This document shows positions 10,025 through 34,793 of a stretch of 43,581 nt of DNA, in pieces. The notes under the pieces are model-generated. The model saw only the letters and a program-made list of their open reading frames with translations, was not told the origin of the DNA and searched no databases. Within the stretch, counting starts at the first letter, position 1. The number at the start of each line of letters is the position of its first letter. Both the position numbers and the translations under genes were made by a program. The stretch lies in assembly GCA_040387495.1 (NCBI GenBank), contig JAZKDQ010000014.1:73752-117332 (forward strand). Reading direction: 5' to 3'. Source of the stretch: Pseudomonadota bacterium. GTDB lineage: Bacteria; Pseudomonadota; Alphaproteobacteria; Paracaedibacterales; CAIOTO01.

Positions 10025-11032
10025 ATGAATATTATGTTTTTTGTTAAATTTATTCTGATAGTTTTTGCATTTACGCAAAGCGGTTTCGCATATGATTCTG
10101 TGATTAAACACTATGACGAACGATGCATCGGTTATATTGAAAAAAGAAACATTGATACTTATACAGATTCTATTCATCAAACCTTATCAACAGAAGATCT
10201 AATTGACCCAAACCTCCACGATTTTGAGAAAAAGAAAAAAGTCATCCAGGCTGTTATGGCCTCTGTGATTATTCACCAGGGAAAGAAAAACTTATCAGGC
10301 AGACTTCCTCAACGAGTGATAAATTCCATTTTCGAAGATCACTTCAAGATTATAATTCTTACAGAAAAAATTTCATTGGGGATTGTTAAAGGTAGGTACG
10401 AGCCTGCAGATTTTCGATTGCTCAAAGAATATAGTGGGATTGAAAAAACCATATTCCTTGATTGGTTTATCGATACATGTCTCGAGCATCAAAGGCCAGA
10501 TCTAGTCCAAAGAATTGAGGAAAGGGAAGCAAGACAGAAAAACCTCCAAAATGAATTGATTCAATTGAGAGCAAAATTAGAAGAAATAAATGTTTTGGAA
10601 AGACAAATTGATAGAAACACTTTAGCCAGAAATCCTCACCACTATGATGGAAATATCCCAAGATGGGCAAATGAGCTTTGGGGCGCATTTGCGGCGTTAA
10701 ATCCCATCAACGTACCAAGCGCAAAAGCAGTTGAAGATAAAATAATGGCAGCAGCAAAAGATATTAATCAAGATGGGTTAATTGCCGAGCGCTATAAGAG
10801 TCTCAGAGGCGCTGGATTCGGCGTTGCTCAAAACCTTTTACAACAAATTGTTGGTTGGAATATTGAAACAGCCGATGGTGGTTATTACGTACCACTTACA
10901 TATGCACTAATACCCGCTGAGGGCTCAACAAATTCAGCAATGTACAACGCTTTTCTTTTTCCTGCAATAAGTACTGTGCAAAATTTATACCTAGAAAAAA
11001 TCCAAGAAATCGAACGTGAAATGCGAAGATAA
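10025..11032 (+). CDS. Secreted hypothetical protein; member 1 of the shared-N-domain family
   Basis: Signal peptide (…QSGFA), N-domain similar to those of 17256-18554 and 33339-34793, then a coiled coil. Confidence 0.8.
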   Translation: MNIMFFVKFILIVFAFTQSGFAYDSVIKHYDERCIGYIEKRNIDTYTDSIHQTLSTEDLIDPNLHDFEKKKKVIQAVMASVIIHQGKKNLSGRLPQRVINSIFEDHFKIIILTEKISLGIVKGRYEPADFRLLKEYSGIEKTIFLDWFIDTCLEHQRPDLVQRIEEREARQKNLQNELIQLRAKLEEINVLERQIDRNTLARNPHHYDGNIPRWANELWGAFAALNPINVPSAKAVEDKIMAAAKDINQDGLIAERYKSLRGAGFGVAQNLLQQIVGWNIETADGGYYVPLTYALIPAEGSTNSAMYNAFLFPAISTVQNLYLEKIQEIEREMRR

Positions 11033-11114
11033 ATCTGGAGGAAGTGCTTTCAGCATGGTGGCAAAAAGATCTGTCGTATATTTGTGGGCACAAAACACCC
11101 AGGCAATCTTAATT

Positions 11115-11142
11115 AAAAAACCCACAAGATTTCTCCCGTGGG
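11115..11142 (-). terminator. Rho-independent terminator of yccA
   Basis: Minus strand CCCACGGGA-GAAA-TCTTGTGGG followed by T6. Confidence 0.8.
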
Positions 11143-11191
11143 GCTTAGTGTTATTGTGTAGTAACCAAGTTGTTATGCGGCACAGTCAAAC

Positions 11192-11899
11192 TTACTTGCG
11201 ATCGCCAAAGATATGCAACAACGACACAAAAATGTTGATGAAATCAAGGTACAACGTTAATGCACCAAACACAGCTTTTTTACCAGCTATTTCTGTGTGA
11301 TCAGATTCTACATAGATTTCTTTGATTTTCTGTGTGTCATATGCTGTTAGGCCTGTGAAAATAATCACACTCAAAATAGAAATCAAAAGTTGCATTGCGC
11401 TGCTGTGCATAAACATATTCACAACACTTGCAAGAATTACGCCCCAAAGACCCATGATCATAAATGATCCCATGGATGTTAGGTCTTTCTTTGTTGTGTA
11501 CCCATAAAGGCTCATTGAACCAAATAGAGATGCTGTAATAAAGAAAACGCGAGCAATACTTTCACCGGTAAAGTGTGCAAGCATAAAGGATAGCGACACG
11601 CCCATCAATGCTGCATATACCCAAAAGAGCATTTGCGCAGTGGATGCTTCTATTTTATCCATACGAACGCTTAAAAACATTACAACACCAAAGGGTGCCA
11701 ACATGAAAAGCAAAGCGAAGGGCTTTAAGCTGCCTAATAGGTGAGGATTGGATGCGATAAGATACGCAATTACACCAGTTAACCCGATACCAAGTGCCAT
11801 GTAGTTATATACACGCAGCATGAATGTGCGCAGACCTTCGTCGATTGCGGAAACGGTCGTTCCATTGCGGAAAATTGGTTGATCATCAAAACGTGACAT
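11192..11899 (-). CDS. yccA: Bax inhibitor-1/YccA family membrane protein
   Basis: IDEGLRTFMLRVYNYM, YGYTTKKDLT, TAYDTQKIK and GALTLYLDFINIF motifs; about 7 TM segments. Confidence 0.93.
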   Translation of the reverse strand: MSRFDDQPIFRNGTTVSAIDEGLRTFMLRVYNYMALGIGLTGVIAYLIASNPHLLGSLKPFALLFMLAPFGVVMFLSVRMDKIEASTAQMLFWVYAALMGVSLSFMLAHFTGESIARVFFITASLFGSMSLYGYTTKKDLTSMGSFMIMGLWGVILASVVNMFMHSSAMQLLISILSVIIFTGLTAYDTQKIKEIYVESDHTEIAGKKAVFGALTLYLDFINIFVSLLHIFGDRK

Positions 11900-12125
11900 A
11901 AATAATTAGCTCCTGAGTCTGTTTTTCTCGATATCGTTATTCTAACCCGAAAATTATCGTTTGTCATGTTTTTCTTTTATACTAATAAAAAGAATATATT
12001 AGGTGTTTGTAGTAGTGGTGCTGTGAATAATGGGGATAACTTTGTTATTAACAGACTTATCCACATGATAACATAGGTTTAGACGGTGAGTTTACCTAAT
12101 GAGCTGGGTGGTTATCCACAGGGTG

Positions 12126-12233
12126 TGTATAAACAACCTTTCCCTGTGCATAAAAGAGGGGTTATACACAGGGGTAAAAAGTTGTTAACAGTTTGTTAAC
12201 CTTTCACGGATGTTATCCACAGGGTTATCCACA
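12126..12233 (+). repeat. Direct repeat copy A (right half of oriC)
   Basis: 108 bp, closely matched by 17127-17233. Confidence 0.92.
12185..12200 (+). promoter_or_regulatory. CtrA binding site within the oriC candidate
   Basis: TTAA-CAGTTTG-TTAAC is an exact match to the TTAA-N7-TTAAC consensus. Confidence 0.75.
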
Positions 12234-12248
12234 GGTTGCCTTGCTGTC

Positions 12249-15200
12249 TTAATGTAACCCTTGATTTTTACCCATATCAATAACCTTTGAATCAGAAGTA
12301 ACTGGGGCAATAGCGCCAATACCTGATTTCTTTCTCATCGCCAAAAGACGTTTTAAATATGGTGTTGCTCCGTTATCTTCGTCTATATGCTTTACCAGTT
12401 GATCCAACGTTAAACCAGTAGATGTTTTAAATTCAAGTAGCTCTTGGTTTTCTTCAACGATTTTTTTCAGCAACACTTCGTGTTTAAATAACAGGATAAA
12501 TCGAGGGTATGCATCATTATCATCATCCGCCCTAGCTAACTTTGAAATATTTGCCCGGGCCAATTTTTCAACAACATTTTCGGGAAAACATTGTAAACCG
12601 AGCGCTAAGAAGTCCTTACCAGGTGCTGTGTTGTTAAAGATAGAAAGTGCTTGATCAACAATAAGTTTTGTTAAATTTGGTGAGTTTGTGTCTGCCATGC
12701 ATAATAAACTTCTCATTTGATCTGCTGTCAGTTGATTTAACACATTCGCACAACCTGCCCATTTTAATACCGCCTCTGTTGCTTTTAACTGGAAAACAGG
12801 ACCATAAGTTGTGGGCATTAGGAGTGGTGGCGTGTTGTACCCACTAGCAGTATCACGTGCTTTTAAAACAACATCGGCCCTTGCCTTTAGTTGATATGGT
12901 AGATAGTAAAATGCACCCACCTTTTTGCTGTTATTGGATGGGTTCAAGGCAGCATATCGTTGATACGCTGGATCCATGCTTTTTAGTATTTGATCAAGGA
13001 TACGCGGAATAAAAAACACATTTTCATCTTTAAAAAGATCATTTATAAATTGTTGATCGAAAAGAGAGAAATCAATCGTTTCAATTTTAGACATAAATGT
13101 CGCAGGTGTTTTTTTAAACTCTTCTGTTAGTTTGTAGGCCAACGATGCTCTTTCGTTTTTAACTGTCTGTTTTGTATCTGATATTTTAAGGCGCCCATCA
13201 AGGTTGCCGTGTAGGTGTGGAACTATTCTTGTTATATCTGAGTAACAGTCACTATCAATAGCTCTGTTTAATTGGTCTTGTAATAATGGTTGTCTTTTTA
13301 TATTTGATGCAATTTTTTTATCAATAATATTTTTGTATTTTTTTGCAACAGAAAACGGAGGTGTTGGGTAAAAATAAGAAACAGATAAAGGCATTTTTTT
13401 TATGATGCGCCATGCTTTTTCTTTTGAGTCTACAATTCTTTTTAAATTGGAATACCATGTTTGTTCTTTTGTGGATCGTTTGCGTAATATTTTTTCCGGG
13501 ATGTGATCCTCATAATATGTCAACAAATCGCTTGATGGGCAATTTTCCAAGACATTTTTAATAATCGATGCGCGATTTGTTTGCAGCGCTGTTTCTAGTT
13601 GGGAAATCCACACTTGGGCGGCATCTGCAGAAAAAGGATTTTTGTACCATAGCCAAGAATTAACACTAGAGTTAATTTTATGTTTAAAAAAAGCATAAAA
13701 TTTGGGGTTAATGTGATCTTTTAATGAGCCACCTGTCTGTTTAATGTGTTTTTCAAGATAGTTGAAGAAACCAGGGGACATGGAGCGTCCTTTTTTGAAT
13801 TCAATCAAGGCATGATTAAGCACACTTAAACCATTAGCGTTGTGAATGCTTAAAAAATCATTTTGAAATGAAAAGTCAGACTCTTGAAGATTCTGTAGAT
13901 ATGGTAGCTCAAACAAAAAAGGATTTCCGGTGTCGGGGTTTTCCGTTTGAAGGTCTAGCCCACTTTTAAAGAGATGGAGAATGTGTTGTTGCATCCATGT
14001 TTTTGTTGGATTTTCTTTTAAAAAACTAAGAAAAAGACTTGCAAATTTTGCAAGGGTTACAAGTTGGCGTTTTGTGGCTGCTTTTATGCACTCTCCCCAC
14101 TTGTCTAAAGAGCGATCAACCGACACTATGGTTTCTTTAATGTCTTCTTCTGTATAAGACCAAATAGACCTGTTTATCAGCTTAACGGCATAGTCATCGC
14201 CGGTTTTTAAAATGGTGCGCCCTATCTTTTGTTTTATCTTATCAGAGACACCAGAAAAGTCGTAATGTTTTAAAATATATCTAAACGAGGATTTAAGTTC
14301 TTCATCCACTCCCGTTGTTATTTTTGTTAATACACTTTCGATACTTAGTATGTCATTTAATTTTTTATTATTTGGATCTTTATGAATAATTTCTGTTACT
14401 ACATATTTTGTGACAGTATAGCTACCACTGGCCAATGCTGCATTACAAAGTGTTACTGGATCAATGGATTGCACCAAATCTGGACATGTTTCCACCAATG
14501 TTTTAAGGGCCTCGATATGACCAAAACGTGCCAAATGTAAGAGGCTGTGTGTGTTTGGTACATCTTCATGTGTATTTCCTGTGACGCCTTTAAAAACCAT
14601 TTTGTACAAATCGCGTGCAGCAGGGGCTTCCATTAAGCTTCCTGGGATAAGCGCTGTTCGTTGAGAAAACCAATACCCTAAGTTAGCGGCAGTTGTTTTG
14701 GAAAGTTCCTTTTCGAAACGTTTCTTTTTCTCGGGGGTGAGTGGAAAAAAATCCAAACCATGCATTTTAAGTTGAGATTCATCATCGGCAAGCGATGGGT
14801 GGAGTGATAAACGCACTTCCCCATAAAGGCCTGTTTTTTTTCTGGTTTCTTCTGTACGTGTTGAGTCGATTTTTCCATCTGCTGTTTTTGGTTCAAAGTC
14901 TTCTTTGCCTGCTTGTGCAACGCGTTCATATTCAGCTTGTGCATTTTGATAAGCAGTTAGAGCTACTTTTTCATCCATATAATCGGTCGCACCATACTCG
15001 GTCAGTGCATCAGGCTTGATAAATAGTTGCAGCAACATTGCGTTACCATAAGGTGTGCCTGTATCGGCAATAAATTGTTGAAATAACGATTCATAGGGGG
15101 CGTAGCTTAAATCCATCCCTAAAAGCGCCGTTCCCTCTTCAAATCGTTTGGAAACATTTGGATCTGCAACACTGTGATTGTTTCCCCAATATTCAACGGA

Positions 15201-16865
15201 TGAGGACGTTGATCTGGATGTTGCGCGCCCTGCAGTAAGTACAAAGTTTCCAAAAATACGACGATCGCGATTACCATTATCATAATGGCTATCACCATTT
15301 CGTGTGGCATCATCGATCATGTTTGTAAGATCACGGAAATAAAGATCGGTATAACGAAGACGTGTTAATCGATCTGTTTGACTTAAGGTTAGATGGTTAT
15401 GCAAGCTTGATGCAATACGGAATGCGTGACCATTCTCATCGTTTGTGCCGTGATAAATTGGGTAAAAACCTGTCTTTTCCCACTCCGTCCGTTCTGAATC
15501 CATTACATCGGCGAGACGCTCAATATAGCGTTCATCAATAACAAGCTCGCGTTTGAATTCGCCTTTTCCATCAGCGATTTTGTTTTTGTATTCCATGCTG
15601 TTGTATGTATAAAAGTATTTTCTTAAGTTGGTAATGTTGGCTGAACGGTGTGGACTTGCTTGGCTTGCATGCTGTGGGTCTTTGGGTTCCGCGTATTCTT
15701 TCTCTAAGACCAGCATAAGGTGCCCTTCGGTCATGGTGTATCGGCCGTGCACAGTCTCAATTTTAGGACGCAAAGAATGCACAGTAAATTTTTCTGTTTT
15801 ATCTAAAATAATAGGAGAATTAAGGGCAGCCATACGCTTTTTCTCAGCCTCTGACTTAAGTTCTATTGTCACGCGTTGACGAAAGGCCTCGGTGTACGCA
15901 AATTCTTTTTCTTCGTGTGCAGTAAACTGAACTTTTTCGTAAGCATTTGGAACAATCTTCATTTTATCAAGGTTGTGACCAAGCTTCTTTAGTTTTTTAA
16001 TGAGTTTGAGTTCTTCTTTGGCCTCAGCTGCATTATTGTTCGCTCTCTTCTGCGCCCTTGCAGCTATTGCCAGAGAGTTGTGTGCCAAATTATCCCGTGG
16101 GGAAACTTTACCATTATCATGATTTGTGTAATCTTCTTCCCTTACGTAACTTGCCTTTTGCGGCGCGCCTAATGGAATAGGCCGCTTACCTTGCGCTAAT
16201 TGTTCTAACATATGCCGATAAAACGGCGTTGATAGCATGTCGTACAGTGGTCCATAAAGTGTAACCTCTTCAAGGTCGTCTGTTTTAACGTTTACTTTTC
16301 CGTTTTTAACCGCACCTAATAAATCTTCTACATTAAATGTTTTAAAGCGCCTGTATTCTTTGCTGTGTCCATCGGTGGCATCGGCAAGTTTTTTGTCAAA
16401 TCTTTCCGCTGAAACATATTTAGTTTCATAAAAATACATACGATACAGTTGGGATTTTTCAGCCAAATACAAATCCGCAAAAGGTGCCCGTAACAAAAGA
16501 TGTGGGTGCGTAGCGAATATGTTAAATGATTCTTCGGCAGCTTCACGGCCCGCTGTTACATGAAGTGTTCCATCATCTGGATCTGATTTGCCACCAAAGT
16601 TACAAAAACCATCATCATCATCGCGCTGTCCCAGGATAACCTTGTAATTATTATGCTTGTCGCGCATATAATACAACACGCCAGCGGCTGTATGCTGTGC
16701 ATCAGCCTTAAAAAATCTGGTTGTTTGTTGTGGCTTGGTTCCGGTCGTTGATACGAAAGATTCAACCTCGGTGAATTCTTTTAATACAGCATAAGCAGAG
16801 GTGCACACGGCTTGATTGAAAACGCACGTCAGCAATAAGGAAGAAGTAAATTTCTTAAGGTTCAT
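12249..16865 (-). CDS. Large secreted multidomain effector-like protein: NUDIX hydrolase, putative ART-like region, ankyrin-like/helical repeats
   Basis: Signal peptide (…TSAYA); Nudix box GGKSDPDDGTLHVTAGREAAEESF at aa ~91-114; YHGT at aa ~471; ankyrin-like LLHLARFGHIEALKTLVE and NANGLSVLNHAL. Confidence 0.85.
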   Translation of the reverse strand: MNLKKFTSSLLLTCVFNQAVCTSAYAVLKEFTEVESFVSTTGTKPQQTTRFFKADAQHTAAGVLYYMRDKHNNYKVILGQRDDDDGFCNFGGKSDPDDGTLHVTAGREAAEESFNIFATHPHLLLRAPFADLYLAEKSQLYRMYFYETKYVSAERFDKKLADATDGHSKEYRRFKTFNVEDLLGAVKNGKVNVKTDDLEEVTLYGPLYDMLSTPFYRHMLEQLAQGKRPIPLGAPQKASYVREEDYTNHDNGKVSPRDNLAHNSLAIAARAQKRANNNAAEAKEELKLIKKLKKLGHNLDKMKIVPNAYEKVQFTAHEEKEFAYTEAFRQRVTIELKSEAEKKRMAALNSPIILDKTEKFTVHSLRPKIETVHGRYTMTEGHLMLVLEKEYAEPKDPQHASQASPHRSANITNLRKYFYTYNSMEYKNKIADGKGEFKRELVIDERYIERLADVMDSERTEWEKTGFYPIYHGTNDENGHAFRIASSLHNHLTLSQTDRLTRLRYTDLYFRDLTNMIDDATRNGDSHYDNGNRDRRIFGNFVLTAGRATSRSTSSSVEYWGNNHSVADPNVSKRFEEGTALLGMDLSYAPYESLFQQFIADTGTPYGNAMLLQLFIKPDALTEYGATDYMDEKVALTAYQNAQAEYERVAQAGKEDFEPKTADGKIDSTRTEETRKKTGLYGEVRLSLHPSLADDESQLKMHGLDFFPLTPEKKKRFEKELSKTTAANLGYWFSQRTALIPGSLMEAPAARDLYKMVFKGVTGNTHEDVPNTHSLLHLARFGHIEALKTLVETCPDLVQSIDPVTLCNAALASGSYTVTKYVVTEIIHKDPNNKKLNDILSIESVLTKITTGVDEELKSSFRYILKHYDFSGVSDKIKQKIGRTILKTGDDYAVKLINRSIWSYTEEDIKETIVSVDRSLDKWGECIKAATKRQLVTLAKFASLFLSFLKENPTKTWMQQHILHLFKSGLDLQTENPDTGNPFLFELPYLQNLQESDFSFQNDFLSIHNANGLSVLNHALIEFKKGRSMSPGFFNYLEKHIKQTGGSLKDHINPKFYAFFKHKINSSVNSWLWYKNPFSADAAQVWISQLETALQTNRASIIKNVLENCPSSDLLTYYEDHIPEKILRKRSTKEQTWYSNLKRIVDSKEKAWRIIKKMPLSVSYFYPTPPFSVAKKYKNIIDKKIASNIKRQPLLQDQLNRAIDSDCYSDITRIVPHLHGNLDGRLKISDTKQTVKNERASLAYKLTEEFKKTPATFMSKIETIDFSLFDQQFINDLFKDENVFFIPRILDQILKSMDPAYQRYAALNPSNNSKKVGAFYYLPYQLKARADVVLKARDTASGYNTPPLLMPTTYGPVFQLKATEAVLKWAGCANVLNQLTADQMRSLLCMADTNSPNLTKLIVDQALSIFNNTAPGKDFLALGLQCFPENVVEKLARANISKLARADDDNDAYPRFILLFKHEVLLKKIVEENQELLEFKTSTGLTLDQLVKHIDEDNGATPYLKRLLAMRKKSGIGAIAPVTSDSKVIDMGKNQGLH

Positions 16866-17255: not shown

Positions 17256-18554
17256 TTATATAGTCGCATGTTGGCTAAATAAAAGGTTACCTGCTGTGAA
17301 TAAGTATGACATTAAACTATTATCCACCTTCTTCTTCTCCTTGGCTTTTGGTGATCCCTGCCAACCAGGAGAAGTTGTCTCTGTAACAACCCAATTATCT
17401 TGATTATCGTTAACCTCGTTTTCACCATTCTCATCTTTTTGTTTATAACAAGCCGAATCGGGAGATGAGCATGCTGATACGCTTTCTATGTTGACGTCGG
17501 GGCTTGTTAGTTTTGGTTTGGTCGAAGTGTTCTCTGTTTGATTGTTCGATAAAGAAATCGATTCAAAATCTTCATCATCATCTTCTTTGTCGCTATTATC
17601 CCCATCACTTTCCTCCTCTTGTTCTCTATCAAGGAAGCCTGCTGTTGAGCTGGATTCATCAGATACAGACCCCGTTGAGGAGGTTGGTTTATTGTTGTCA
17701 TCAAGATCTTCTGGTGTTGTGTGGGAAGAATCAAAGCTCGCTTCATCACAATTAATGGTGTTAAAATACCCATCTCCTAAACTCACATCTTTCTTTACTC
17801 TACTTTGTGTATCAAGCCTTGGAGTTGAATATCGAGGAGAGTGGAGTGTAGAAGCTCGTTTCTTTGGTGTGGTGAAGTCGCTATCCGGTTCGTTTTTTGA
17901 TAGCTGAAGAGGGCTGCGCTGGTTGACTTTTTTTGCGATTGCCGTGTTTACAATCTGCTCATTTAAGGTTTTTTTGGCAAACACAGTATTATCAAGAATG
18001 TTAATTGCTTGTCGTTTAGTAAGACCATCGTTGTGTTCAGAAAGAGCCTCGTTAAACCAAAGAGAAAACATATCTTGTGTGATTTGGCCAAATTCATCAA
18101 GTTCTTTGTGGTCGTTCCACTGATTCGATAACAATTCACGATCAATGGTTTTATTGCCATCTTTGTCTAATAACCCCCTTGCTAATTTATCCGAAAGCGC
18201 CTCTGTTTGTTCTAGAATTTTAAAATGTTTATAATTTTTGTCTTTTTTATCCAGTTTCTTAAACGATAACCTGTATTGTTCTGGGTTTTTATGAACAAAA
18301 AATTTGGCCATAGTTGTTTTAATGATCAATTTTTTTTGATCAAATGTTGCCTGAACATTTGAAACTTTGTCGTAATCGGAAAGTAATTTATTAGAATTTT
18401 CAGTGTGTTGAGCAAATAATTCTTCTCTGTTTGGGTTCGCGTTAAATTTTCCACGGCGATATTTGTTTTCATCCTCAAGATATTCACATGAAAAGCTTTG
18501 CATCGAAATAAAAAATGTAAAAAGTATGCTTTTGCAATAAGATCTGACTTTCAT
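17256..18554 (-). CDS. Secreted hypothetical protein; member 2 of the shared-N-domain family, with an acidic disordered C-terminal half
   Basis: Signal peptide (…MQSFS), shared N-domain, and a D/E/S-rich tail. The ATG at 18554 follows a GAGG RBS. Confidence 0.8.
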   Translation of the reverse strand: MKVRSYCKSILFTFFISMQSFSCEYLEDENKYRRGKFNANPNREELFAQHTENSNKLLSDYDKVSNVQATFDQKKLIIKTTMAKFFVHKNPEQYRLSFKKLDKKDKNYKHFKILEQTEALSDKLARGLLDKDGNKTIDRELLSNQWNDHKELDEFGQITQDMFSLWFNEALSEHNDGLTKRQAINILDNTVFAKKTLNEQIVNTAIAKKVNQRSPLQLSKNEPDSDFTTPKKRASTLHSPRYSTPRLDTQSRVKKDVSLGDGYFNTINCDEASFDSSHTTPEDLDDNNKPTSSTGSVSDESSSTAGFLDREQEEESDGDNSDKEDDDEDFESISLSNNQTENTSTKPKLTSPDVNIESVSACSSPDSACYKQKDENGENEVNDNQDNWVVTETTSPGWQGSPKAKEKKKVDNSLMSYLFTAGNLLFSQHATI

Positions 18555-19026: not shown

Positions 19027-20172
19027 CTAAGCATCTGAATCATCATCAGATGTATCGCTGTATGGGTCGCCTTCACTTTCGCTGTCTCCGCCAAATACTT
19101 CTAGCAACTCTTGGTGAATGTCTTCACGCTTAGAATGCTTTGCTTGATCTCCACCACGTAATTTGCGAATGACTCTTTTTGTTGCTTTGCCGCGATGATC
19201 TTCGCTTGGGGCTCCCTCGAAAGCGGAATAAGTACCAAAGGAATATTCGGAAGAATGCTTGCTTGGTGCATGAAAGAAATCTTGTAGTGATAATTCTTTC
19301 TGTTTTTCTTGTAGGGAAAGCTTTAATGCGCCCACAATCGCACATGCAACAGGAACGTTATCAAGTACGTTTCGATCCTAATTCATGAAGTTTATTTTCC
19401 ATTTTTCATGGCCTAGATTCTGAGCGCGCTGGGTATTACGTGCTTTGCTTTGAGCAATATCATCATGAAATGCTGGATTTAATGGATTATTAACAATATT
19501 GGAATCTTGAAGGCGTCGTGCAACCTCAAAATCTAAAAGCACATTCAATCTTTCTAAATCTACAATTTCCCCTTCATGTGAAAGTCTGGGATAACGAATT
19601 GAGTAATGATATGAGCCATCATCCTTTTTGCGTGCTTTTAAAAGTTTTTTAGCTATTTTTTTTTGATATGATGTCTTGTATATATCTAAAACAGGATGTA
19701 TTTCTCTGTGCATTCCTATTCCCGCAACAATACCATTACCGGGTTGTCGTAAAATTGGAGTTAACTTAATATTAAATTCCTTCTCGTTAAGCAAAAACGG
19801 AATCGCTTGATCTTCACCCTTTACAGCCGCTGTTAACTCACGAAATAGAAAAATACGTGAACGTGAAGATAATCCATCAAGACTAATTCGTGTAAGGGCA
19901 TTTCTAGCCTGAAGTTCTGTTTTGAATTGTTGTACGGCAGCGCGAACGACTGGCTTTGTGGACAACCTTTTGAAAAATCTATTATTCACTCCTTGATGCC
20001 GAGTGTATTCTACATCAGTATCATATTCTTCTTCTATTTCTGCCTTTTCTTGTGCGACAATCTTTAATACCGCTCCAATATCGTTTAGATCATCTAGGCC
20101 TTTATTTCCTGCATGTAATAAATGCAATTGTGAAATTATAACAACCGTAGATAAAACTATTTTTACAATCAT
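19027..20172 (-). pseudogene. Secreted hypothetical protein interrupted by one in-frame TAG (19378-19380)
   Basis: ORFs 19378-20172 and 19027-19335 share a frame; the read-through is …KINFMN*DRNVLDNVPVACAIVGALK…. Confidence 0.7.
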
Positions 20173-20409: not shown

Positions 20410-21912
20410 ATGGCTCCAATGAATCAAGCTAAAAAAGACGCCAAATTCACGCACTTGCGTGCAACATTTTGGCCCAGCCATTCACATGAAATAAAGAAAT
20501 TTGTTTCGCTATCGTTGATCATGTTTGGGCTTCTCTTTATCTACACCATTGCGCGCGATACAAAAGATACGCTCGTCATTAATGCCGTTGGTGTGCATAT
20601 TATCCCTTTTTTGCAAGGGGCAGCGCTGACAATAGCTGGGTTTTTGTTTGTTCTGGTGTACGCAAAACTGTCTAATATGTTTTCGCGTGAGAAATTGTTC
20701 TACATTATTATCACGCCTTTTTTGTTCTATTACGCCTTTTTTGGGTTTGTGATTCATCCTAACAACGAGTGGTTCCACCCTGCAAAAGAAACCATCGCTG
20801 CACTGAATGCCTCATTCCCCGCTCTGTCGGGTTTTATTGATATATATGCGTGCTGGTCGTATTCACTGTTTTATATTCTAACCGAAATATGGGGCAATGC
20901 GATGATCGGCCTCATGTTTTGGGAATTTGCAAACCATATTGTTCTTCTTGATGAATCAAAGCGATTTTATGGATTGTTTGCCGTTATTGCCAATGTTGCA
21001 TTGATTATATCGGGTTATTTTGTGTATTTTTGCTCGAACACGATTCAGTCTTTCTTACCGCAGGGAAAAGACGCATGGACAATCTCGATGTATCTTTTGA
21101 TGGGCAGTATTCTTTTGATGGGTGTTTTTGTTATTAGCGTTTTTCGTTGGATGCACATTCATATATTACATAACGGTGACGCGGATGGCTTCTCCGTAGA
21201 AAAAGTTAAAGCACAGCCATCCCAGAAAAAATCACTTCTCCAAAGTGCCTGGGTTGTTGTGACTTCACATGAGATTTTGTTGATTCTTATCCTTGTCTTG
21301 TCCTATTCCATTGCGGTTAACGTGCTCGAAATGCAGTGGAAGCATCAGCTCAATCTATTTTGCCAGGGTAATAGTGGAATCTATAACGGATACATGGGGT
21401 TGTATTCGTCTATCACAGGTGTTTTTACGATTCTTTGTGGCGTGTTCATTAGTGCGCGCTTGCTGCACAGTGGCACGTGGTTTCGAGCGGCGATCATTAC
21501 GCCGGCACTATTTTTAATCATCGGTGGATTGTATTTCATTCATATAGTTAATCCAAACTTGATTGGGTTTATTTTAAGTAAGTTTTCTGTGTCGCCGCTT
21601 GCATTTGCTGCAGCGGCAGGTGGAGTGGTTGTTCTTATTTTAAAATCAATGAAATACACATTGTTTGACCCCACAAAAGAAATGGCTTATATCCCATTGA
21701 GTGAAGAGCTGCGCACAAAAGGAAAAGCGGCTGTTGATGTGCTGGGCAGCAATTTAGGCGAATCCGGTAGTGGGTATATTCACATTATTTTGTTTAGCGT
21801 GATGGTAACGAAAGATGTGCTGATTATTGCACCGTATGCATGCGCGATTTTTCTGGCTGTGTGCTTGGTGTGGCTAATGGCCGTTAAAGTTATGGCAGAT
21901 AAGATTGCGTGA
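20410..21912 (+). CDS. NTT/TLC-family nucleotide transporter (ATP/ADP translocase family)
   Basis: YTIARDTKD, FWEFAN, KRFYGLF, KYTLFDPTKEMAYIPL and KGKAAVDV motifs; about 12 TM segments. Confidence 0.93.
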   Translation: MAPMNQAKKDAKFTHLRATFWPSHSHEIKKFVSLSLIMFGLLFIYTIARDTKDTLVINAVGVHIIPFLQGAALTIAGFLFVLVYAKLSNMFSREKLFYIIITPFLFYYAFFGFVIHPNNEWFHPAKETIAALNASFPALSGFIDIYACWSYSLFYILTEIWGNAMIGLMFWEFANHIVLLDESKRFYGLFAVIANVALIISGYFVYFCSNTIQSFLPQGKDAWTISMYLLMGSILLMGVFVISVFRWMHIHILHNGDADGFSVEKVKAQPSQKKSLLQSAWVVVTSHEILLILILVLSYSIAVNVLEMQWKHQLNLFCQGNSGIYNGYMGLYSSITGVFTILCGVFISARLLHSGTWFRAAIITPALFLIIGGLYFIHIVNPNLIGFILSKFSVSPLAFAAAAGGVVVLILKSMKYTLFDPTKEMAYIPLSEELRTKGKAAVDVLGSNLGESGSGYIHIILFSVMVTKDVLIIAPYACAIFLAVCLVWLMAVKVMADKIA

Positions 21913-21975: not shown

Positions 21976-22009
21976 TTAAGGATCACCTACACTAGACATG
22001 TCAACTTGC

Positions 22010-22339
22010 ATGAATACAAAAAAAGTTCTTATTTACAAAGATATTACAGGCAAAGAGCCTTTTGTAAATTGGCTAGAAACACAAGATAAAATTTCTCAAA
22101 TACGCATTAGAAAGCGAATTGCGCGTATTGAAATCGGTAATTTGGGTGATTACAAGGCGATTGATTCTGGCGTCTTTGAACTAAGGTTTTTCTTTGGATC
22201 AGGCTATCGTGTATATTTTGGAATGCTTGGTGACACCGCTGTTATTTTATTGTGTGGCGGCGATAAATCAAGTCAAGAACAAGACATAAAAAAAGCAATT
22301 TCTTATTGGAAAGAGGTTCAAAATGAGATCATTTCATGA
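22010..22339 (+). CDS. Type II toxin, RelE/ParE (addiction module killer) family
   Basis: GKEPFVNWL…GNLGDYK…GVFELRFFFGSGYRVYF…LLCGGDKSSQEQDI. Confidence 0.92.
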   Translation: MNTKKVLIYKDITGKEPFVNWLETQDKISQIRIRKRIARIEIGNLGDYKAIDSGVFELRFFFGSGYRVYFGMLGDTAVILLCGGDKSSQEQDIKKAISYWKEVQNEIIS

Positions 22340-22643
22340 ATATAACATTGAAAAATTAAAAAATTCTGAAGATGCATGCCTTTATTTGACAGACGCTTTG
22401 CTTGATTTTGAGGTTGATCATGATGTGCATGCTTTTTTGAAAGCGCTGAAAGATGTGACTGATGCACAAGGTGGTATAGGTGAGCTTGCAAAAAGAACAA
22501 ACCTCAACCGTCAAAATCTGTACAAAATTCTTTCTGCAAAACGCCAACCAAAGATCGAAACATTGGGAACAATTTTAGATGGATTAGGGTTTCAGCTAAG
22601 TATTACCCCCAAAAATAGTACAATTCCAGAACAGCATGTTTAA
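22323..22643 (+). CDS. Type II antitoxin (addiction module antidote, HTH)
   Basis: YLxxAL…FLKALKDV…GGIGELAKRTNLNRQNLYKILS…PKIETL; overlaps the toxin gene. Confidence 0.92.
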   Translation: MRSFHEYNIEKLKNSEDACLYLTDALLDFEVDHDVHAFLKALKDVTDAQGGIGELAKRTNLNRQNLYKILSAKRQPKIETLGTILDGLGFQLSITPKNSTIPEQHV

Positions 22644-25700: not shown

Positions 25701-25850
25701 TAATGATTCAGATGTTTTTGGGGATCTAACGCCGAATGACATTGGTTTTTCCAATTCCAATTTTTTATACTTGATTTATTATCACGTCATGCACATATAA
25801 GAATAGTAATAAGAAATATGCTTTTAATTTTCACATCAAAGGGATACACA

Positions 25851-26918
25851 ATGTTTACAAAACTTGTAATATTGACGACACTTTCATTGGTTTCAATCGT
25901 TACTGCAATGACGCCAGAGGACATAGAAAATAATTCGAATCAGTTAGTTGTTGTTGCTGCAGGTGCGGCGATAGAGCAAGTCGGGCAGGCCGCTGAAGAA
26001 CACGCTGCAGCTATAGGGCAGATTTTGACGGCAACACCTGCTGCAACTCGTGTCTATAAAGAGCCCCACCTTTGGAGTGAAATAAGATCATATTTGGGAA
26101 TGAATTACAGCTGCCCAAGTGATGCGCGCATAAGCAAATTGTTGGCTTTAAATGAATCAGACAGACACAAAGCGTTTATTTTTTCGGCGTCTATTTTTTC
26201 GCCGTATCTAAAGATTAATGATTTTTCAATTTTATCAAATGCACATTTAATAGCATTAAGTACCAATACTTTTTTTGATACTGTTGATATAGATATGCCA
26301 TACATAAACCCAAATAATTTGGCTGATGGATTAGCAACATTAAAAACCTCTCTTCTTCCACGCAAAGTAACCATATCTTCTGAGAGCTTTCAAACAATTA
26401 GGTGGACTCGGACTTTTGAAACGATTAATGGAAAAAGAGTTAACACAAGAACCAGTGATTTTGTTCAAATTACACCTGAACGTCCTTCACATTCATGTGG
26501 TATGAGAATCAGGGGTGGAGAGCTAGATGGAAATGCTGTGTGGATAGAGGAGCCTGAATGTGGTCGTGATATTTGTGTTAATCAAATAGATATTTTTAGT
26601 AAATTGCAGGTGTGTGCAAATATAAAAAAAACAGAGCTTAAGTCATTCTGGGAAAAGGAAACTGATCATTTTTCTTCGATTCGTGATTTAATCCTTATGC
26701 CACAAACAGAATATAAATTTTTCAAAATAACTAATGAATTTTCCAAAATTGACTTATCAGCAATACTCTTAACACTCCCAACTCTGGCACTCGAATCATC
26801 AAGCATTGAACCTTCTTATGCAAGAATCGAAACAACGTCGATTCCAGTTGAGTCTAGTGCTGGAGAAATTTATCTGAAACTAACAACAAAGTTCTCTGTG
26901 TTTTCGTTAAAGAAATAA
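25851..26918 (+). CDS. Secreted hypothetical protein
   Basis: Signal peptide MFTKLVILTTLSLVSIVTA; no recognised domain. Confidence 0.75.
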   Translation: MFTKLVILTTLSLVSIVTAMTPEDIENNSNQLVVVAAGAAIEQVGQAAEEHAAAIGQILTATPAATRVYKEPHLWSEIRSYLGMNYSCPSDARISKLLALNESDRHKAFIFSASIFSPYLKINDFSILSNAHLIALSTNTFFDTVDIDMPYINPNNLADGLATLKTSLLPRKVTISSESFQTIRWTRTFETINGKRVNTRTSDFVQITPERPSHSCGMRIRGGELDGNAVWIEEPECGRDICVNQIDIFSKLQVCANIKKTELKSFWEKETDHFSSIRDLILMPQTEYKFFKITNEFSKIDLSAILLTLPTLALESSSIEPSYARIETTSIPVESSAGEIYLKLTTKFSVFSLKK

Positions 26919-27945: not shown

Positions 27946-28812
27946 ATGCCTCTTTCAATTCAAAATCAAGATCATTCACGTGAGGATTCGTTACCTAATA
28001 CATTGTTAGCGCCTGGGGATCTTAAAATTGGAGAGCAATATCATCTTTCAGAGTTGAGACACGATAAATACACACACGACTTTGGTTATTTGGACCGAGT
28101 TTTAGAAAACGAACAATTTGCCTTGTTTGAGCAACGTCAATGGAATTTAGATCTTTGCACGCCCATGGGCACAGAAATATTGCTTCGCGTACCAAATGTA
28201 AATGACACTCAGCTTTATTTATCGACAGCCTATTGGATTGAATTCGCTGAATCAACCAAAAAGCTTGAAGACTTATCGTATAAAATTTTATCAAAGCTCC
28301 TTAGGAATGCACATTTGTTAAACCCCTTGCATGCGCCTTATTATGTGAATATGCCGCCGCCAGTTGTGTCTGTTGAGCTTGTTAATTATCTTAAGACATT
28401 AATTGATAAAGCGGGACTACCCTATAATTTCATCGGCATTGAATTGACCGAGCGTCAACCCATTATTGACCCGATACAATTTAAGCATGGCATCAATGCA
28501 CTGCAGTTGCTAAAAATACCGGTTGCCCTTGATGATTACGGACGCGGGTATGCAACGATGCAATTCTTGCGTGATATGTATGTTGATCGCGTTAAGATTG
28601 ATCGCGGGTTGTTACATGACGCTAAAGTTAATTTATCAAAACGCTTAACACTGGTGTCGTTGCTTGATTTTGCGACTGAATTTGGTATCGAAGTTATCGC
28701 CGAAGGTGTTGAAATTGAAAGTGATTACGATTTTGTATGTCAGCTTGAGTGTGATGGGTTGCAAGGATTTTATGTTGATTCGCCCCAAATGCTGATTCCT
28801 GTTGAGGCGTAA
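27946..28812 (+). CDS. Stand-alone EAL-domain protein (c-di-GMP phosphodiesterase-like)
   Basis: EILLR, YVN, IELTE, DDYGRG, KID, EGVE and QG motifs. Confidence 0.88.
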   Translation: MPLSIQNQDHSREDSLPNTLLAPGDLKIGEQYHLSELRHDKYTHDFGYLDRVLENEQFALFEQRQWNLDLCTPMGTEILLRVPNVNDTQLYLSTAYWIEFAESTKKLEDLSYKILSKLLRNAHLLNPLHAPYYVNMPPPVVSVELVNYLKTLIDKAGLPYNFIGIELTERQPIIDPIQFKHGINALQLLKIPVALDDYGRGYATMQFLRDMYVDRVKIDRGLLHDAKVNLSKRLTLVSLLDFATEFGIEVIAEGVEIESDYDFVCQLECDGLQGFYVDSPQMLIPVEA

Positions 28813-28936
28813 CGTATTTTGTTAGCGTGAGGTGAAAATTCACTAAAAATACACCTAAAAAATACATAAAATACAATCTATTTGTTAATAAATTCATGCT
28901 ATGCTCTCATCAAAGAAGTGTATTAAGAGGATTTTT

Positions 28937-29941
28937 ATGAGTTTCACATCTATATCAAACTCTCTGAATTTTGGTCGGCGCAGCCCCAAGCAACCTCAGC
29001 TGCGTTCAGATACTTCCATAGGCCCACTTTCTGAATCTTCAAGCACTTACTGTTCAAAACTTATAAAAACAAGTATGCGTTTTTCTTTAACTGCTTTGTT
29101 GCTTGAAATGCCACCATATTATGTATCGCAGGCGAATGCAGATGATGAAAAAGGTTCTTCAGTTGTTCAGGTAGGTGCACGTAATACACGCAATAAAGAT
29201 TTCCAACACATACTAAATAATTCTCATTTCGCCCTATTTGCACAGGAACAACGATACGTAAATAATGGACTTTTAGGCAAGGTTGATCGATCTGCGGGAA
29301 CAGAGCTGCTTATTCGTATCCCCAATGCACTGGAAAAAGGTAAATACCTCAATACCGAAGAATTTATTATCCACGTTGCCAGCATGGGGCAGCTTGACGC
29401 GTTGACAACAAAAATTATTGAAAAAGTCATTCGCAGTGTGGCGTTATTGGATAGAGCAAACGCACCTTATTATATCAATGTTCCGCCGCCATTGATCTCG
29501 CCTATATTTGCTAAAGAACTCGCGTTGAAATTAGCTGAAGCTGGACTCTCAACTAAATTGATCGGTATTGAACTAACAGAACGTGAAACGATTTTGGATC
29601 GCGCAGCTTTTAATGCAGGCATGACAGAACTTAAGCGAATGGGTATTCCACTTGCGCTTGATGATTATGGGCGTGGCAATTCAACGCAAGAATTTCTAAT
29701 TGGTTTACCAGTTGAGCGCATTAAAATTGATCGCGGTGCGTTTTGTGATGCGCAAAAAGATTCAAAACTGGCAGAAAAACTGTCTTCAGAAATAGAACTT
29801 ATGCAAAAATCAGGCATGGAAGTGATCGTAGAGGGCATTGAAACCACTGACGATTGCACGTTTGCACTTAATTTAGGGTGCGATGGGATGCAGGGTTATT
29901 TTTTTGATTTCCCCAAAATGCTGATTCCTGTTGACGCGTAA
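28937..29941 (+). CDS. EAL-domain protein with an N-terminal extension
   Basis: ELLIR, YIN, IELTE, DDYGRG, KID, EGIE and QGY motifs. Confidence 0.88.
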   Translation: MSFTSISNSLNFGRRSPKQPQLRSDTSIGPLSESSSTYCSKLIKTSMRFSLTALLLEMPPYYVSQANADDEKGSSVVQVGARNTRNKDFQHILNNSHFALFAQEQRYVNNGLLGKVDRSAGTELLIRIPNALEKGKYLNTEEFIIHVASMGQLDALTTKIIEKVIRSVALLDRANAPYYINVPPPLISPIFAKELALKLAEAGLSTKLIGIELTERETILDRAAFNAGMTELKRMGIPLALDDYGRGNSTQEFLIGLPVERIKIDRGAFCDAQKDSKLAEKLSSEIELMQKSGMEVIVEGIETTDDCTFALNLGCDGMQGYFFDFPKMLIPVDA

Positions 29942-30106: not shown

Positions 30107-30156
30107 GGGTGGATAAAGTGCACGCCTTCAATTAAAACAACGAAAGGCTTTCTACA

Positions 30157-31021: not shown

Positions 31022-31072
31022 ACCTTTGGCTGTATGAGTACATAGAGCAAACTAAAAAAATAACGGACGATT

Positions 31073-31897
31073 ATGAACAAAAAATTTATTTTACTAAGTG
31101 GATTACTGGTTGCCGGAATCGCATTATTTTTTATGCGCCAAGCAGAGCATCCTGTGGATCCTAAAGGTGCTGCAGATAAAGCTCCATTAACTGAATTTCG
31201 CGTCGGTGTAACCGCAGGCCCGCATGCCATTATTATGGATTTTGTGAAAAAGGAAGCCGTGCGCCACGGGCTCAATGTGAAAGTCGTTGAGTTTAATGAC
31301 TTTATTTTGCCAAACGCTGCGCTTGATCATGGTGATATCATGGCGAATTCATATCAACATAAATTGTTTTTGGATGATCAAATCAAAAATCGTAATTACC
31401 ATTTAACTGTTGTGGCGCCGTCTGTTGTGATGCCACTTGGTGTGTATGCCTTTTCGCTGAAATCACTTGCTGATCTTAAGCAAGGTGCAACTGTATTGAT
31501 TCCAAATGACCCAACTAATGGTGGGCGGGCACTGTTGTTGTTGCAAAAATTAGGCTTACTTAAGCTAAAAGAAAATCCATTACCAAGCATGCTTGATATT
31601 GCAGAAAATCCAAAACAATTGGTGATTAAAGAGCTTGATGCGCCCACATTACCGCGGGCAATGGTTGACGCAGATATCGCTGTGATCAATACGGATTGGT
31701 TGTTTGTGGCGGGATTGGATCCGGCAAAGGCTCTGGCACGGGAAGAAAAAGATTCACCGTATGTGAATATAATTGTAGTGCGTAGCGGAACCGAGAATGA
31801 TGCAGATGTGAAAAAATTTGTGGCGATTTACCACAGTGAGCCGGTGCGCAAATTTATTGAAACTGAATTTAAAGGCGCTGTTATTCCTGCTTTTTGA
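31073..31897 (+). CDS. metQ: MetQ/NlpA-family ABC transporter substrate-binding protein
   Basis: VEFNDFILPNAAL, ANSYQH, IPNDPTNGGRALLLL and SPYVNIIVVR motifs. Confidence 0.9.
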   Translation: MNKKFILLSGLLVAGIALFFMRQAEHPVDPKGAADKAPLTEFRVGVTAGPHAIIMDFVKKEAVRHGLNVKVVEFNDFILPNAALDHGDIMANSYQHKLFLDDQIKNRNYHLTVVAPSVVMPLGVYAFSLKSLADLKQGATVLIPNDPTNGGRALLLLQKLGLLKLKENPLPSMLDIAENPKQLVIKELDAPTLPRAMVDADIAVINTDWLFVAGLDPAKALAREEKDSPYVNIIVVRSGTENDADVKKFVAIYHSEPVRKFIETEFKGAVIPAF

Positions 31898-31914
31898 GGA
31901 TATTTCCATTACTA

Positions 31915-32002
31915 CACCGTCATGGCGAGACTCACAGAAGCGTGGCCATCCAGAAAACAGCCTGGATCACCACGTCGTCTTTGACTCCTCGTGATGACGG
32001 TG
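31915..32002. repeat. REP/RPE-like palindromic element (CGTCATxGCGAG…GCGTGGCxATCCAG type)
   Basis: CACCGTCATGGCGAG…CGTGGCCATCCAG / CTGGATCACCACG…CTCGTGATGACGGTG. Confidence 0.82.
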
Positions 32003-32027
32003 ATTAAAATACATAAGGATGAAAAAC

Positions 32028-32861
32028 ATGAAAACAGTAACAATCGGTACCATCAACGTATCAAACACATTACCACTCGTACTTATCGCGGGTCCGTGCG
32101 TACTTGAAAGCCGTGACCATGCGATGATGATGGCAGAAAAACTAACGACGCTCTGTGCACAAAAGAATATTTCTCTTATCTACAAATCATCATTTGATAA
32201 AGCAAATCGCACCAGTTTAAATGGTGCACGCGGTCTTGGCCTTGATGCGAGTCTTGCTATTTTTGAAGAAATTAAGCGCACCTTTGGTTGCCCGATTGTG
32301 ACGGACGTTCATTCACCAGAGCATTGTGCAGCGATTGCGGGTTCGGTAGATGTATTGCAGATTCCAGCATTTTTATGCCGTCAGACAGATTTGCTAAAGG
32401 CTGCCGCTGAGACTGGTAAAGTCATCAACATTAAAAAAGGTCAATTCCTTGCGCCATGGGATATGAACAACGTTGTATCAAAGATGGAAGCGTTCGGAAA
32501 CACATCAATCATGTTGTGTGAGCGCGGTGCAAGTTTTGGTTATAACACATTGGTGTCTGATATGCGCGGCCTGGCCATTATGGCAAAAACGGGTTATCCC
32601 GTTGTGTTTGACGCGACGCATTCAGTGCAACAACCAGGCGGAGCAGGCGAATCAACCGCTGGTCAACGTGAATTTGCACCAATTTTAGCGCGATCTGCAG
32701 TTGCAACGGGCATTGCAGCCGTGTTTTTGGAAACGCACCAAGACCCTGACCGTGCACCAAGCGATGGTCCAAACATGATTCATTTATCGGATATGGCACA
32801 AGTCATTGATGAATTGATGGCGTTTGATAAAGTTGCTAAGGCAATGCCGCGGGGGATTTAA
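32028..32861 (+). CDS. kdsA: KDO8P synthase (3-deoxy-8-phosphooctulonate synthase)
   Basis: IAGPCVLES, KSSFDKANRTS, LQIPAFLCRQTDL, KKGQFLAP, DATHSVQQPG and SDGPN motifs. Confidence 0.97.
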   Translation: MKTVTIGTINVSNTLPLVLIAGPCVLESRDHAMMMAEKLTTLCAQKNISLIYKSSFDKANRTSLNGARGLGLDASLAIFEEIKRTFGCPIVTDVHSPEHCAAIAGSVDVLQIPAFLCRQTDLLKAAAETGKVINIKKGQFLAPWDMNNVVSKMEAFGNTSIMLCERGASFGYNTLVSDMRGLAIMAKTGYPVVFDATHSVQQPGGAGESTAGQREFAPILARSAVATGIAAVFLETHQDPDRAPSDGPNMIHLSDMAQVIDELMAFDKVAKAMPRGI

Positions 32862-32914
32862 GGGACCGGAATTTCCTCTTCTCTCTTGCTCTCATATTTC
32901 TTTCATTTCCAATT

Positions 32915-32941
32915 CCCCTTGAGTCTAACTCAAGGGGTTTT
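32915..32941 (+). terminator. Rho-independent terminator of kdsA
   Basis: CCCCTTGAGT-CTA-ACTCAAGGGG followed by TTTT. Confidence 0.85.
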
Positions 32942-33338
32942 CCATATTAAGGCCCGTCAACGATGAATACACGAAAAAATAAAAGCGGGATGTGTTATTA
33001 AATCAAATTTTAATTTCTATACATAACAATAAACACAACAAAAAACTATATCTCATCTCAATTGTAGGCATCTTTGTGAGAGCCCGAAGATGGCACCGTG
33101 GAGTCTTGGAAATGATATCGTGGGAATATTCTCCTGTCATTTTGTTTAAGTACCATTAAATTGACCTTCCATCATTTATGATCATCTGAATAAATTATTG
33201 CGTATTTTAAATATCAATAAAATGCATTTAAAGTTAAATTATAACTATAAAATTAGCAAATAAAGCAATAATTCAATCCCTGCTTGTTCAAAGAAAGTGA
33301 TATCCATGATATGTAAAATATGAAGAAGGTATAGTGAA

Positions 33339-34793
33339 ATGAAAATAGAAATAGAAATTAAATTCTATCTAAAATTATTGTTATTGGCATTTTTTGCAAT
33401 AACAAATAGTTCTGCAGTTGATATGATCAAGGAAAATGACAACACACGATGTGGTTTTTTTAATGAATCACCAAATGATGAGTCGCGATATTTACAGAAC
33501 ACAGCAGAAATAAACCAGACACTTGGTGATGAAAAGAAAGTTAATCCAAAGAAGTCAGCGTCTGTGGCGGAAAAAGAAATAATTCTGAAAGCTGTTATGG
33601 CAACGGTTATTATTCATGGAGATTTGCATAAGCTAGTTACTCCTACGCTGGGTGAGACCCATGCTCTTTATTATCATTATGAAATTTTACGCCTTACTGA
33701 GGAGCTTTCCCACAAACTTGTGAGTCAGTACAAAGACGAGAAAAAGATCGATATAGCATGCTTTAGTGGATATGAAAATCTGTATGCGTATAGTGGCTTA
33801 GAGCAACAAATGCTTGCTTTGTGGTTTACTGACGCAATGTTCGCTCATAAGGCAGGGATTGATAAGCTTATGGCAGAAAAAGTTGAAAAAGAGTTTTATC
33901 AAAGTGATATTAGAGGAAGAACTACTGCACAAAACTCAGGAAGAACAAGCACTGAAAGTGTTGATTCAGAAGATATACCAAGAGAAATAGAAGAAGCATT
34001 AGATGAAGAAGACAAAGTTGATTTGATTATACCTATTGACGCTTCAGCTAGGACAAATTTTACGGCGACTTCGGCAAAACCAATCGTACATTCTCCTCGG
34101 CCAACTACCAACACATCAAATTCAAGTGTTTTTACCAACAATGCACCTAATGAGATTAGTGAGAATGGAGAATCAAGTAAAATAGTTGCTTCTTTTATCG
34201 CCCCAGATGGTGCGTCCACTAATGACATTTTAAGGGGAAAACATAATAGAAAAAGTTATGTATTTACTATTCAAAATTTTTCTTACGGTGGAAAGAGCCT
34301 CCGTGAGGCATTAGAAATGTCAGACGAAATGCTTGTTAAGTTAAGGAAAGATCTTGCTGATTTCGCGGAATTTTATCCCAAAGTAGAAAAATTAAAAGAC
34401 TCCCGAATTGAATCTAATAAACGTATGGGGAGGAATAATTTGGTTGCAAAATTAGAAAAAGATCAGCGCATAGCAGATAAAAAAATACAAAAGTTAAACG
34501 ATATACGCGATAAAAATAATGATGAACTCAGTAATGACATAGAGCTTGCATCATACGCCTTGAATAAAAACGTAATATGCATTTGGAATAATAATGAAGG
34601 CAATCTTTCCTTAGTTTTTGCCTACAATAATGGTGAAAATTTTATAGAAAATACGGATACAGATGTTGATTTAACCTCACAGAACACGATTCACTTATTA
34701 TATAACGAAGAGGAAGGTTGTTATCACCCTCTTAAGAGAGAAGAAAATACGCCGATAACAAAACTGTGTAATTTTTTCAGGCTTTATAATTAA
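33339..34793 (+). CDS. Secreted hypothetical protein; member 3 of the shared-N-domain family, with an OTU-like C-terminus
   Basis: Signal peptide (…NSSA), shared N-domain, S/T/E-rich linker, then IAPDGAS…LRKDLA…DIELASYALNKNV…IHLLY…CYHPL. Confidence 0.8.
   Translation: MKIEIEIKFYLKLLLLAFFAITNSSAVDMIKENDNTRCGFFNESPNDESRYLQNTAEINQTLGDEKKVNPKKSASVAEKEIILKAVMATVIIHGDLHKLVTPTLGETHALYYHYEILRLTEELSHKLVSQYKDEKKIDIACFSGYENLYAYSGLEQQMLALWFTDAMFAHKAGIDKLMAEKVEKEFYQSDIRGRTTAQNSGRTSTESVDSEDIPREIEEALDEEDKVDLIIPIDASARTNFTATSAKPIVHSPRPTTNTSNSSVFTNNAPNEISENGESSKIVASFIAPDGASTNDILRGKHNRKSYVFTIQNFSYGGKSLREALEMSDEMLVKLRKDLADFAEFYPKVEKLKDSRIESNKRMGRNNLVAKLEKDQRIADKKIQKLNDIRDKNNDELSNDIELASYALNKNVICIWNNNEGNLSLVFAYNNGENFIENTDTDVDLTSQNTIHLLYNEEEGCYHPLKREENTPITKLCNFFRLYN

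Follow-up and report, generated by a model that had tools for sequence, protein, structure and literature searches.

Do three scattered genes that begin alike and end differently mark a family of exported proteins, and if so, what would their common part do? The question arises from a stretch of 43,581 nucleotides, here called the window, on contig JAZKDQ010000014.1 (positions 73,752 to 117,332, forward strand) of the Pseudomonadota bacterium assembly GCA_040387495.1, a member of the alphaproteobacterial order Paracaedibacterales. The bacterium has a small genome and apparently lives inside cells, and the valyl-tRNA synthetase encoded in the window is 50-60% identical to alphaproteobacterial ones. 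The three genes, W1, W2 and W3, each encode a Sec-type signal, a common domain (the head) and a C-terminal part (the tail) unrelated to those of the other two. The head proved to belong to an expanded family with highly diverse tails, and there is about an even chance that it serves as a common docking or anchoring module for a shared partner at the interface between symbiont and host. The genes are laid out as follows:

W1: 10025-11032, plus strand; 335 residues; Sec-type signal 10025-10090, all-alpha domain 10091-10519, C-terminal part 10520-11029
W2: 17256-18554, minus strand; 432 residues from the ATG at 18554; signal 18489-18554, domain 18006-18488, tail 17259-18005
W3: 33339-34793, plus strand; 484 residues; signal 33339-33416, domain 33417-33878, low-complexity linker to about 34230, cassette about 34231-34790

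The head domain and its family

An N-terminal region of about 150 residues is common to the three proteins at 22-31% identity. Each pairwise BLASTP comparison is significant (W2/W3, E 2e-17 and 31% identity; W1/W3, E 3e-10 and 29%; W1/W2, E 2e-6 and 22%), and at the level of sequence the similarity is well beyond chance. A first-pass annotation, made from the window alone, had already described three open reading frames sharing a domain after a Sec-type signal. Its coordinates and the peptide blocks it quoted are present in the translations, and the residues it gave as invariant among the three (K, MA, three His, TE..S and WF) are as listed; its domain limits also agree with the profile envelopes (residues 23-165 in W1, 23-183 in W2 and 27-180 in W3). 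On reading the sequences, each window domain follows an N-terminus of the Sec type that is first basic and then hydrophobic, with signals ending in ...SGFA/YD, ...QSFS/CE and ...NSSA/VD and, in further members, in HCFS or QCFA. In W2, a GTG lies three codons upstream of the ATG at 18554.

The count of three members was too low. A profile built from the three window domains was searched against the bacterium's own genome (1.66 Mb in 20 contigs, 99.9% completeness) and found the domain at 10 places: the three window genes, a tandem pair on contig C7, single copies on C1, C4 (758 residues) and C16 (263 residues), a copy on C8 with an in-frame TAA, and an internal copy in a giant open reading frame of 2593 residues. 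A search for related loci with W3 alone as the query found no relatives in the genome_contigs collection. In the C8 member (G000:C8:113682-114353, minus strand), one in-frame TAA interrupts the gene shortly ahead of the domain core; this probably marks a pseudogene or an error of assembly or sequencing. Co-regulation through a CtrA box was considered as a common feature and rejected, with TTAA-N7-TTAA lying upstream of only one of the 10 members.

Among the genomes searched, the family is confined to one order of small-genome alphaproteobacteria that bear a type VI secretion system (T6SS). Fourteen of 62 genomes of the order match at E<=1e-5, the window genome included, and no match was found in 397 genomes sampled evenly from the remainder of the class. 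Five of the six congeners match, with 9-24 matches per genome; G002 (genus g1), a congener that is 98% complete, has none. Other genera are patchy, with one of 14 genomes matching in genus g9 and three of three in g16; the single g9 genome, G039, has 6 matches, and the 13 others have none. The patchiness seen in G002 and in genus g9 suggests transfer between symbionts or rapid loss. Of 1.84 billion representative proteins, the profile matches 208 at E<=1e-3, 145 at E<=1e-10 and 29 at E<=1e-30; the only source name found for the family is "hypothetical protein [Alphaproteobacteria bacterium]". A limited search of the full-text literature found no published description of the domain family.

The first-pass view that the family has no name also holds. 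W1, W2 and W3 have no Pfam or NCBIfam match, and in a Pfam hmmscan of 86 members at E<=1 no family, among those listed, was matched by more than two; two members gave weak UIM matches. A sequence profile search of the PDB with the domain reached a best E value of 1.3, and a search of the ESM Atlas returned nothing usable. AlphaFold2, given the 86-row alignment, predicts an all-alpha domain of eight helices with very high confidence (pLDDT 97.2, pTM 0.92). A Foldseek search of the PDB with this model gave no match at E<=0.001, the best TMq being 0.28, and across Pfam, NCBIfam, PDB sequences and Foldseek no confident match to a characterised domain was found. An exhaustive VIA search reached Z 6.3 at best (4uer_a; root-mean-square deviation (rmsd) 3.5, 99 residues aligned), with none at Z>=8 and matches of a generic helical kind; by the tool's own rating, such a result is uninformative for helical proteins and indicates neither a new nor a known fold. 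In the libraries searched (the PDB by Foldseek, and VIA), nothing known convincingly resembles the predicted fold. A homodimer prediction for the domain gave an ipSAE of 0.01, which is evidence neither for nor against a dimer.

Residue conservation was counted over 172 copies of the domain, in W3 numbering. The best-kept positions are H113 (92%), R37 (91%), A74 (87%) and T55 (86%), followed by H170 (83%), L62 (82%), F163 (80%) and W162 (78%). H93, the first of the three histidines in the first-pass annotation, is kept in 62% of copies and the Glu in fewer than 60%. The metal site of three His and a Glu that had been suggested is therefore not a feature of the family.

Tails, architectures and giant proteins

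In 141 of the 150 best representatives the domain starts at or before residue 110 (median start 27.5), and 116 of 159 proteins have a strongly hydrophobic 10-mer ahead of it. Among the 43 others, 13 are cut off at residue 1, and the majority of the rest carry leaders of a similar but weaker kind. Nine of the 150 carry the domain elsewhere, namely five giants of 1506-3315 residues with 2-3 tandem internal copies, two subtilases and two others; in P0067 and P0073 the domain is C-terminal and follows Peptidase_S8. These internal, tandem and C-terminal positions are easier to reconcile with an independent binding module than with an N-terminal leader.

Behind this constant part the proteins diverge, as the first-pass claim of modular, swappable C-termini had it. 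The 125 tails of at least 60 residues fall into 72 BLASTP clusters, and the eight intact non-giant copies of the genome end in C-terminal parts that resemble neither one another nor anything else encoded there (tblastn and blastp). Only 12 of the 150 proteins have a Pfam match at E<=1e-4: DUF637 (2), LHH (1) and Tox-HNH-HHH (1) among the giants, and Sel1 (3), Ank (1), HEAT (1), DnaJ (1), Peptidase_S8 (2) and a weak ParcG (1) among the others. The recognisable tail domains are of kinds found in host-directed effectors. Among 41 pairs of heads that are at least 60% identical, the tails are unrelated in 15, a count possibly inflated by low-complexity tails such as that of W2. The clean case is the breakpoint between W3 and P0016, which align at 48% identity (E 2e-76) through signal, domain and linker to W3 residue 297 and not at all beyond; as far as sequence comparison reaches, tails have demonstrably been replaced over evolution. 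C-terminal tail anchors occur in one lineage only (3 of 159 proteins).

The window tails illustrate this diversity. In W1, the domain is followed by a heptad-like stretch and then by a C-terminal part common only to P0027, P0051 and P0087. The W2 tail is of low complexity and rich in Ser, Asp and Glu, and its sole match is P0007, at 96% identity. The W3 tail had been called OTU-like, a resemblance that found no support: it has no Pfam OTU match at E<=1, only two homologues were found in 5.8 billion clusters, and the candidate catalytic motifs are not kept, with "DGAS" missing and "CYH" replaced by "HFY" in the only diverged homologue.

The head also occurs within very large proteins, one of which is encoded just outside the window:

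Giant protein: G000:C14:65155-72936 (L020:7156-14937), minus strand; 2593 residues, signal-bearing; start codon 816 bp before window position 1; a single head domain, at residues 772-932

An AlphaFold2 model of residues 560-1160 (mean pLDDT 78.9, beta blocks mostly above 90) runs from confident beta structure through a disordered linker to the helical domain and then to confident beta structure again. Beta structure thus flanks the helical domain on both sides, and the head stands as an independent module within the filament of CdiA-like proteins. For the beta parts, alignments were found to right-handed beta-helices from adhesins and from passengers of type V secretion, namely Vag8 (Z 16.3, rmsd 5.8, 317 aligned), the two-partner-secreted adhesin EtpA (Z 14.0, rmsd 7.8, 349 aligned) and the HxuA secretion domain (Z 10.8, rmsd 4.5, 197 aligned), although repeat folds score high generically. 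The giant has no PDB sequence match, and Foldseek with the modelled segment found nothing at E<=0.001. A weak DUF637 match at residues 2002-2176 (E 8e-4) lies below the curated cut-off, and the C-terminal 400 or so residues have no Pfam match. DUF637 is found in the related giants P0004 (E 4e-12) and P0020 (E 5e-11), and giants of relatives have a weak PT-VENN match (E 0.013) or LHH or Tox-HNH-HHH ends.

The upstream neighbour of the giant gene is a Tn3-type transposase at the start of the window, with no TpsB gene nearby. This transposase gene, of the Tn3 family (DDE_Tnp_Tn3) and truncated by the edge of the window, occupies positions 3-3157 together with that of a serine resolvase, and the two separate the giant gene from the remainder of the window.

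The role of the head

According to the docking reading, these would be modular proteins exported by Sec, each with a cleavable-looking signal, a constant all-alpha head of about 150 residues, usually a low-complexity or coiled linker, and a variable C-terminal module. The head would bind one shared partner between the symbiont surface and the host, and many different cargo domains would thereby be delivered to one common site or kept there. Passage past the inner membrane and binding by the head, as well as what any partner would be, are steps that we infer. Docking or anchoring is the most economical reading because the head occurs at the N-terminus, as internal tandem copies and at the C-terminus, and because more than 70 unrelated families of tails are attached to it, some of them with eukaryote-interaction repeats. 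In the giants, moreover, the insertion lies roughly where CdiA-type proteins reportedly carry their receptor-binding domain (work of Ruhe and colleagues, 2018).

A number of observations weigh against this proposal. No partner for the head was found; no gene is conserved beside the members, and W1, W2 and W3 stand amid housekeeping genes. A way out of the cell is also hard to name. The genome has one TolC-type gene, one Omp85 and a T6SS sheath gene; a T6SS is present, but Sec signals do not fit T6SS export. No VirB4 was found in the genome, and no ShlB/TpsB in the genome or its six congeners; the search does detect TpsB in this lineage, having found one in 1 of 41 relatives. The sole secretin (G000:C1:206404-210740, L101:6405-10741, minus strand; 557 residues, Secretin and Secretin_N_2), whose gene overlaps that of an 891-residue TPR/ARM-like protein, is an orphan, with no GspE-type gene among the neighbours scanned. 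In six giants no two-partner secretion (TPS) domain is detectable (no Haemagg_act or FHA Pfam match at E<=1). Nor was a MafA-like lipoprotein gene found upstream, or a canonical lipobox, the motif L-[AS]-[GA]-C. The conserved polar residues R37, T55, H113 and H170 suit a catalytic or ligand site equally well.

Similar facts can be arranged into other readings. The head may instead be a handle for export or translocation, recognised by an outer-membrane route or itself carrying cargo across a host or vacuolar membrane, a proposal that is unlikely but still live, and one that the first-pass annotation had made in suggesting a translocation or targeting module of a polymorphic effector system. 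It would explain why, in 141 of 150 representatives, the head comes straight after the Sec signal, and the lack of a detectable TpsB for the giants in the genus implies that giants and small proteins may share one unrecognised exit route. Histidines of helical toxin translocation domains can act as pH sensors, and by analogy the conserved histidines of the head could do the same. Such a handle is, however, difficult to square with a head that is also an internal tandem and a C-terminal module, with signal-bearing orphans in the window that lack it (12249-16865, minus; 19378-20172, minus; 25818-26918, plus), and with W1, W2 and W3 themselves, in which no long hydrophobic helix able to span a membrane was seen on reading. 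A phyletic link between the family and the secretin or the T6SS was considered and set aside as uninformative: the secretin is present in 38 of 41 relatives and the T6SS in all 41, both being near-universal in the order, whereas the family is patchy, so that neither tracks it. A bolder version, in which the head acts as the address label for a so far undescribed delivery pathway of symbionts poor in type V and lacking type IV secretion systems, either an exporter handle common to small effectors and giants or a self-acting carrier into the host cell, is distinctly unlikely; if true, it would be a bacterial counterpart of the leader domains of eukaryotic pathogens.

With a comparably small likelihood, the head is an enzyme or a domain binding a small ligand or metal, and the variable tails are its targeting parts. 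An Arg, a Thr and two His are nearly invariant over the 172 copies, and the compact fold is predicted very confidently, both of which speak for such a role; yet one His of the earlier metal-site proposal and its Glu are poorly kept (62% and below 60%), neither sequence nor fold matches any enzyme family, and tandem copies inside a filamentous, adhesin-like protein would be unusual for an enzyme. The idea of a pro-domain or intramolecular chaperone, which would hold diverse cargo in an inactive or soluble state in the periplasm and be removed when that cargo is released, draws on the name "prodomains" given to analogous Amoebophilus domains (PMC3482391). The low-complexity linker that follows the head in W2, W3 and relatives could hold a processing site, and a disorder proxy over 120 proteins gives the linker a slight compositional difference (0.55 vs 0.51). 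A single domain is nevertheless unlikely to chaperone at least 72 unrelated tail families, no conserved cleavage motif was seen after the head, and the internal tandem copies of the giants do not fit, all of which makes this idea very unlikely.

Neighbouring genes, known designs and significance

The neighbours of W1, W2 and W3 include methyltransferases, Bax1-I, an orphan protein of 1538 residues, KdsA and UPF0102. Watershed and freshwater metagenome runs from four studies, one of which may be the source, contain contigs that match parts of W3 identically or almost so. A contig of 201 nucleotides identical to 34034-34234 was found in a freshwater metatranscriptome library, a type of library that may contain DNA, and gives only a hint that W3 is transcribed. 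Further genes of the window are as follows:

5659-7128, plus strand: 489 residues with a signal; weak match to the C-terminal domain of glycosyltransferase family 10 (fucosyltransferase), E 1.4e-4, below the cut-off
12249-16865, minus strand: the 1538-residue orphan, directly downstream of W2, with a Sec-type signal and no Pfam match; a stretch near the N-terminus resembles, by eye, a Nudix box
20410-21912, plus strand: TLC ATP/ADP translocase, E 2e-136
21998-22643, plus strand: Gp49-like / HI1420-type toxin-antitoxin pair, after the TLC translocase
27946-29941, plus strand: two adjacent EAL-domain proteins of 288 and 346 residues, with no GGDEF detected in either
37163-38998, minus strand: 611 residues with a signal, (PV)n repeats, long Gln/Asn-rich low-complexity repeats and a Cys-rich C-terminus; no Pfam match

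The design of the head family has precedents. Zhang et al. described MAFB-N, Microscilla-N, APD1 and APD2 as lineage-specific constant heads with polymorphic C-termini, proposed that such heads serve in surface anchoring or clustering, and predicted that further lineage-specific heads exist (Zhang et al., 2012; PMC3482391). By its sequences, the present family fits the MAFB-N/APD design, with a signal, a lineage-restricted globular domain and highly polymorphic C-termini that have been replaced. Among the systems closest to it are APD1 and APD2, the Amoebophilus asiaticus prodomains. These also belong to an endosymbiont of a microbial eukaryote and consist of a constant, lineage-specific domain straight after the signal, with extremely polymorphic C-termini, many parallel paralogues and eukaryote-interaction domains in the tails. 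The two families were compared by description only, and they differ in that the APD proteins have a lipobox, whereas the present proteins, on reading, lack a canonical one, and in that APD belongs to Bacteroidota and the present family to Alphaproteobacteria. The present head is also found inside beta-helical giants and after subtilase domains.

MAFB-N, which overlaps Pfam DUF1020 and comes from Neisseria MafB, likewise combines a signal, a genus-restricted globular domain and a polymorphic C-terminus with a proposed surface-anchoring role. However, DUF1020 was absent among the families listed for the 86 members at E<=1 (the best 25 of 90) and was not found on W1, W2 or W3. In the window, no MafA-like lipoprotein gene upstream and no immunity gene downstream is evident, and the recognisable cargo of the present family mostly does not consist of toxin domains. 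The giants alone resemble CdiA/TpsA, being very large and having a beta-helical body, DUF637, weak PT-VENN, HNH-type toxin ends in relatives and a non-beta module inserted mid-filament; unlike CdiA/TpsA, they have no Pfam-detectable TPS domain or FHA repeats, and no TpsB was found in the genome or genus. A related kind of organism, Ca. Bodocaedibacter vickermanii, is reported as a Paracaedibacter-like symbiont with Sec, a T6SS and giant toxins, one of which has a Tox-HNH-HHH end (PMC8163844). Its "PTS III" includes small proteins with N-terminal homology to one large protein (PMC8163844). The likeness is again one of description only, and the PTS III genes are clustered with putative antitoxins, whereas the present genes are dispersed.

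The head domain itself is undescribed, whereas the design of a constant head with variable cargo was already known in endosymbionts and polymorphic toxins; what has been found is a real, expanded and order-restricted family and not a new kind of system. Its discovery confirms what was predicted in 2012, namely that constant heads specific to a lineage occur more widely than in the few cases then known. For these protist endosymbionts, the path of Sec-exported effectors to the host, and their action on it, are poorly understood. One apparently new, confidently folded domain present on about 10-24 proteins per genome, and on giants, turns this into a candidate-effector catalogue that can be computed, and as a single domain it offers a concrete handle for finding the shared partner or route.

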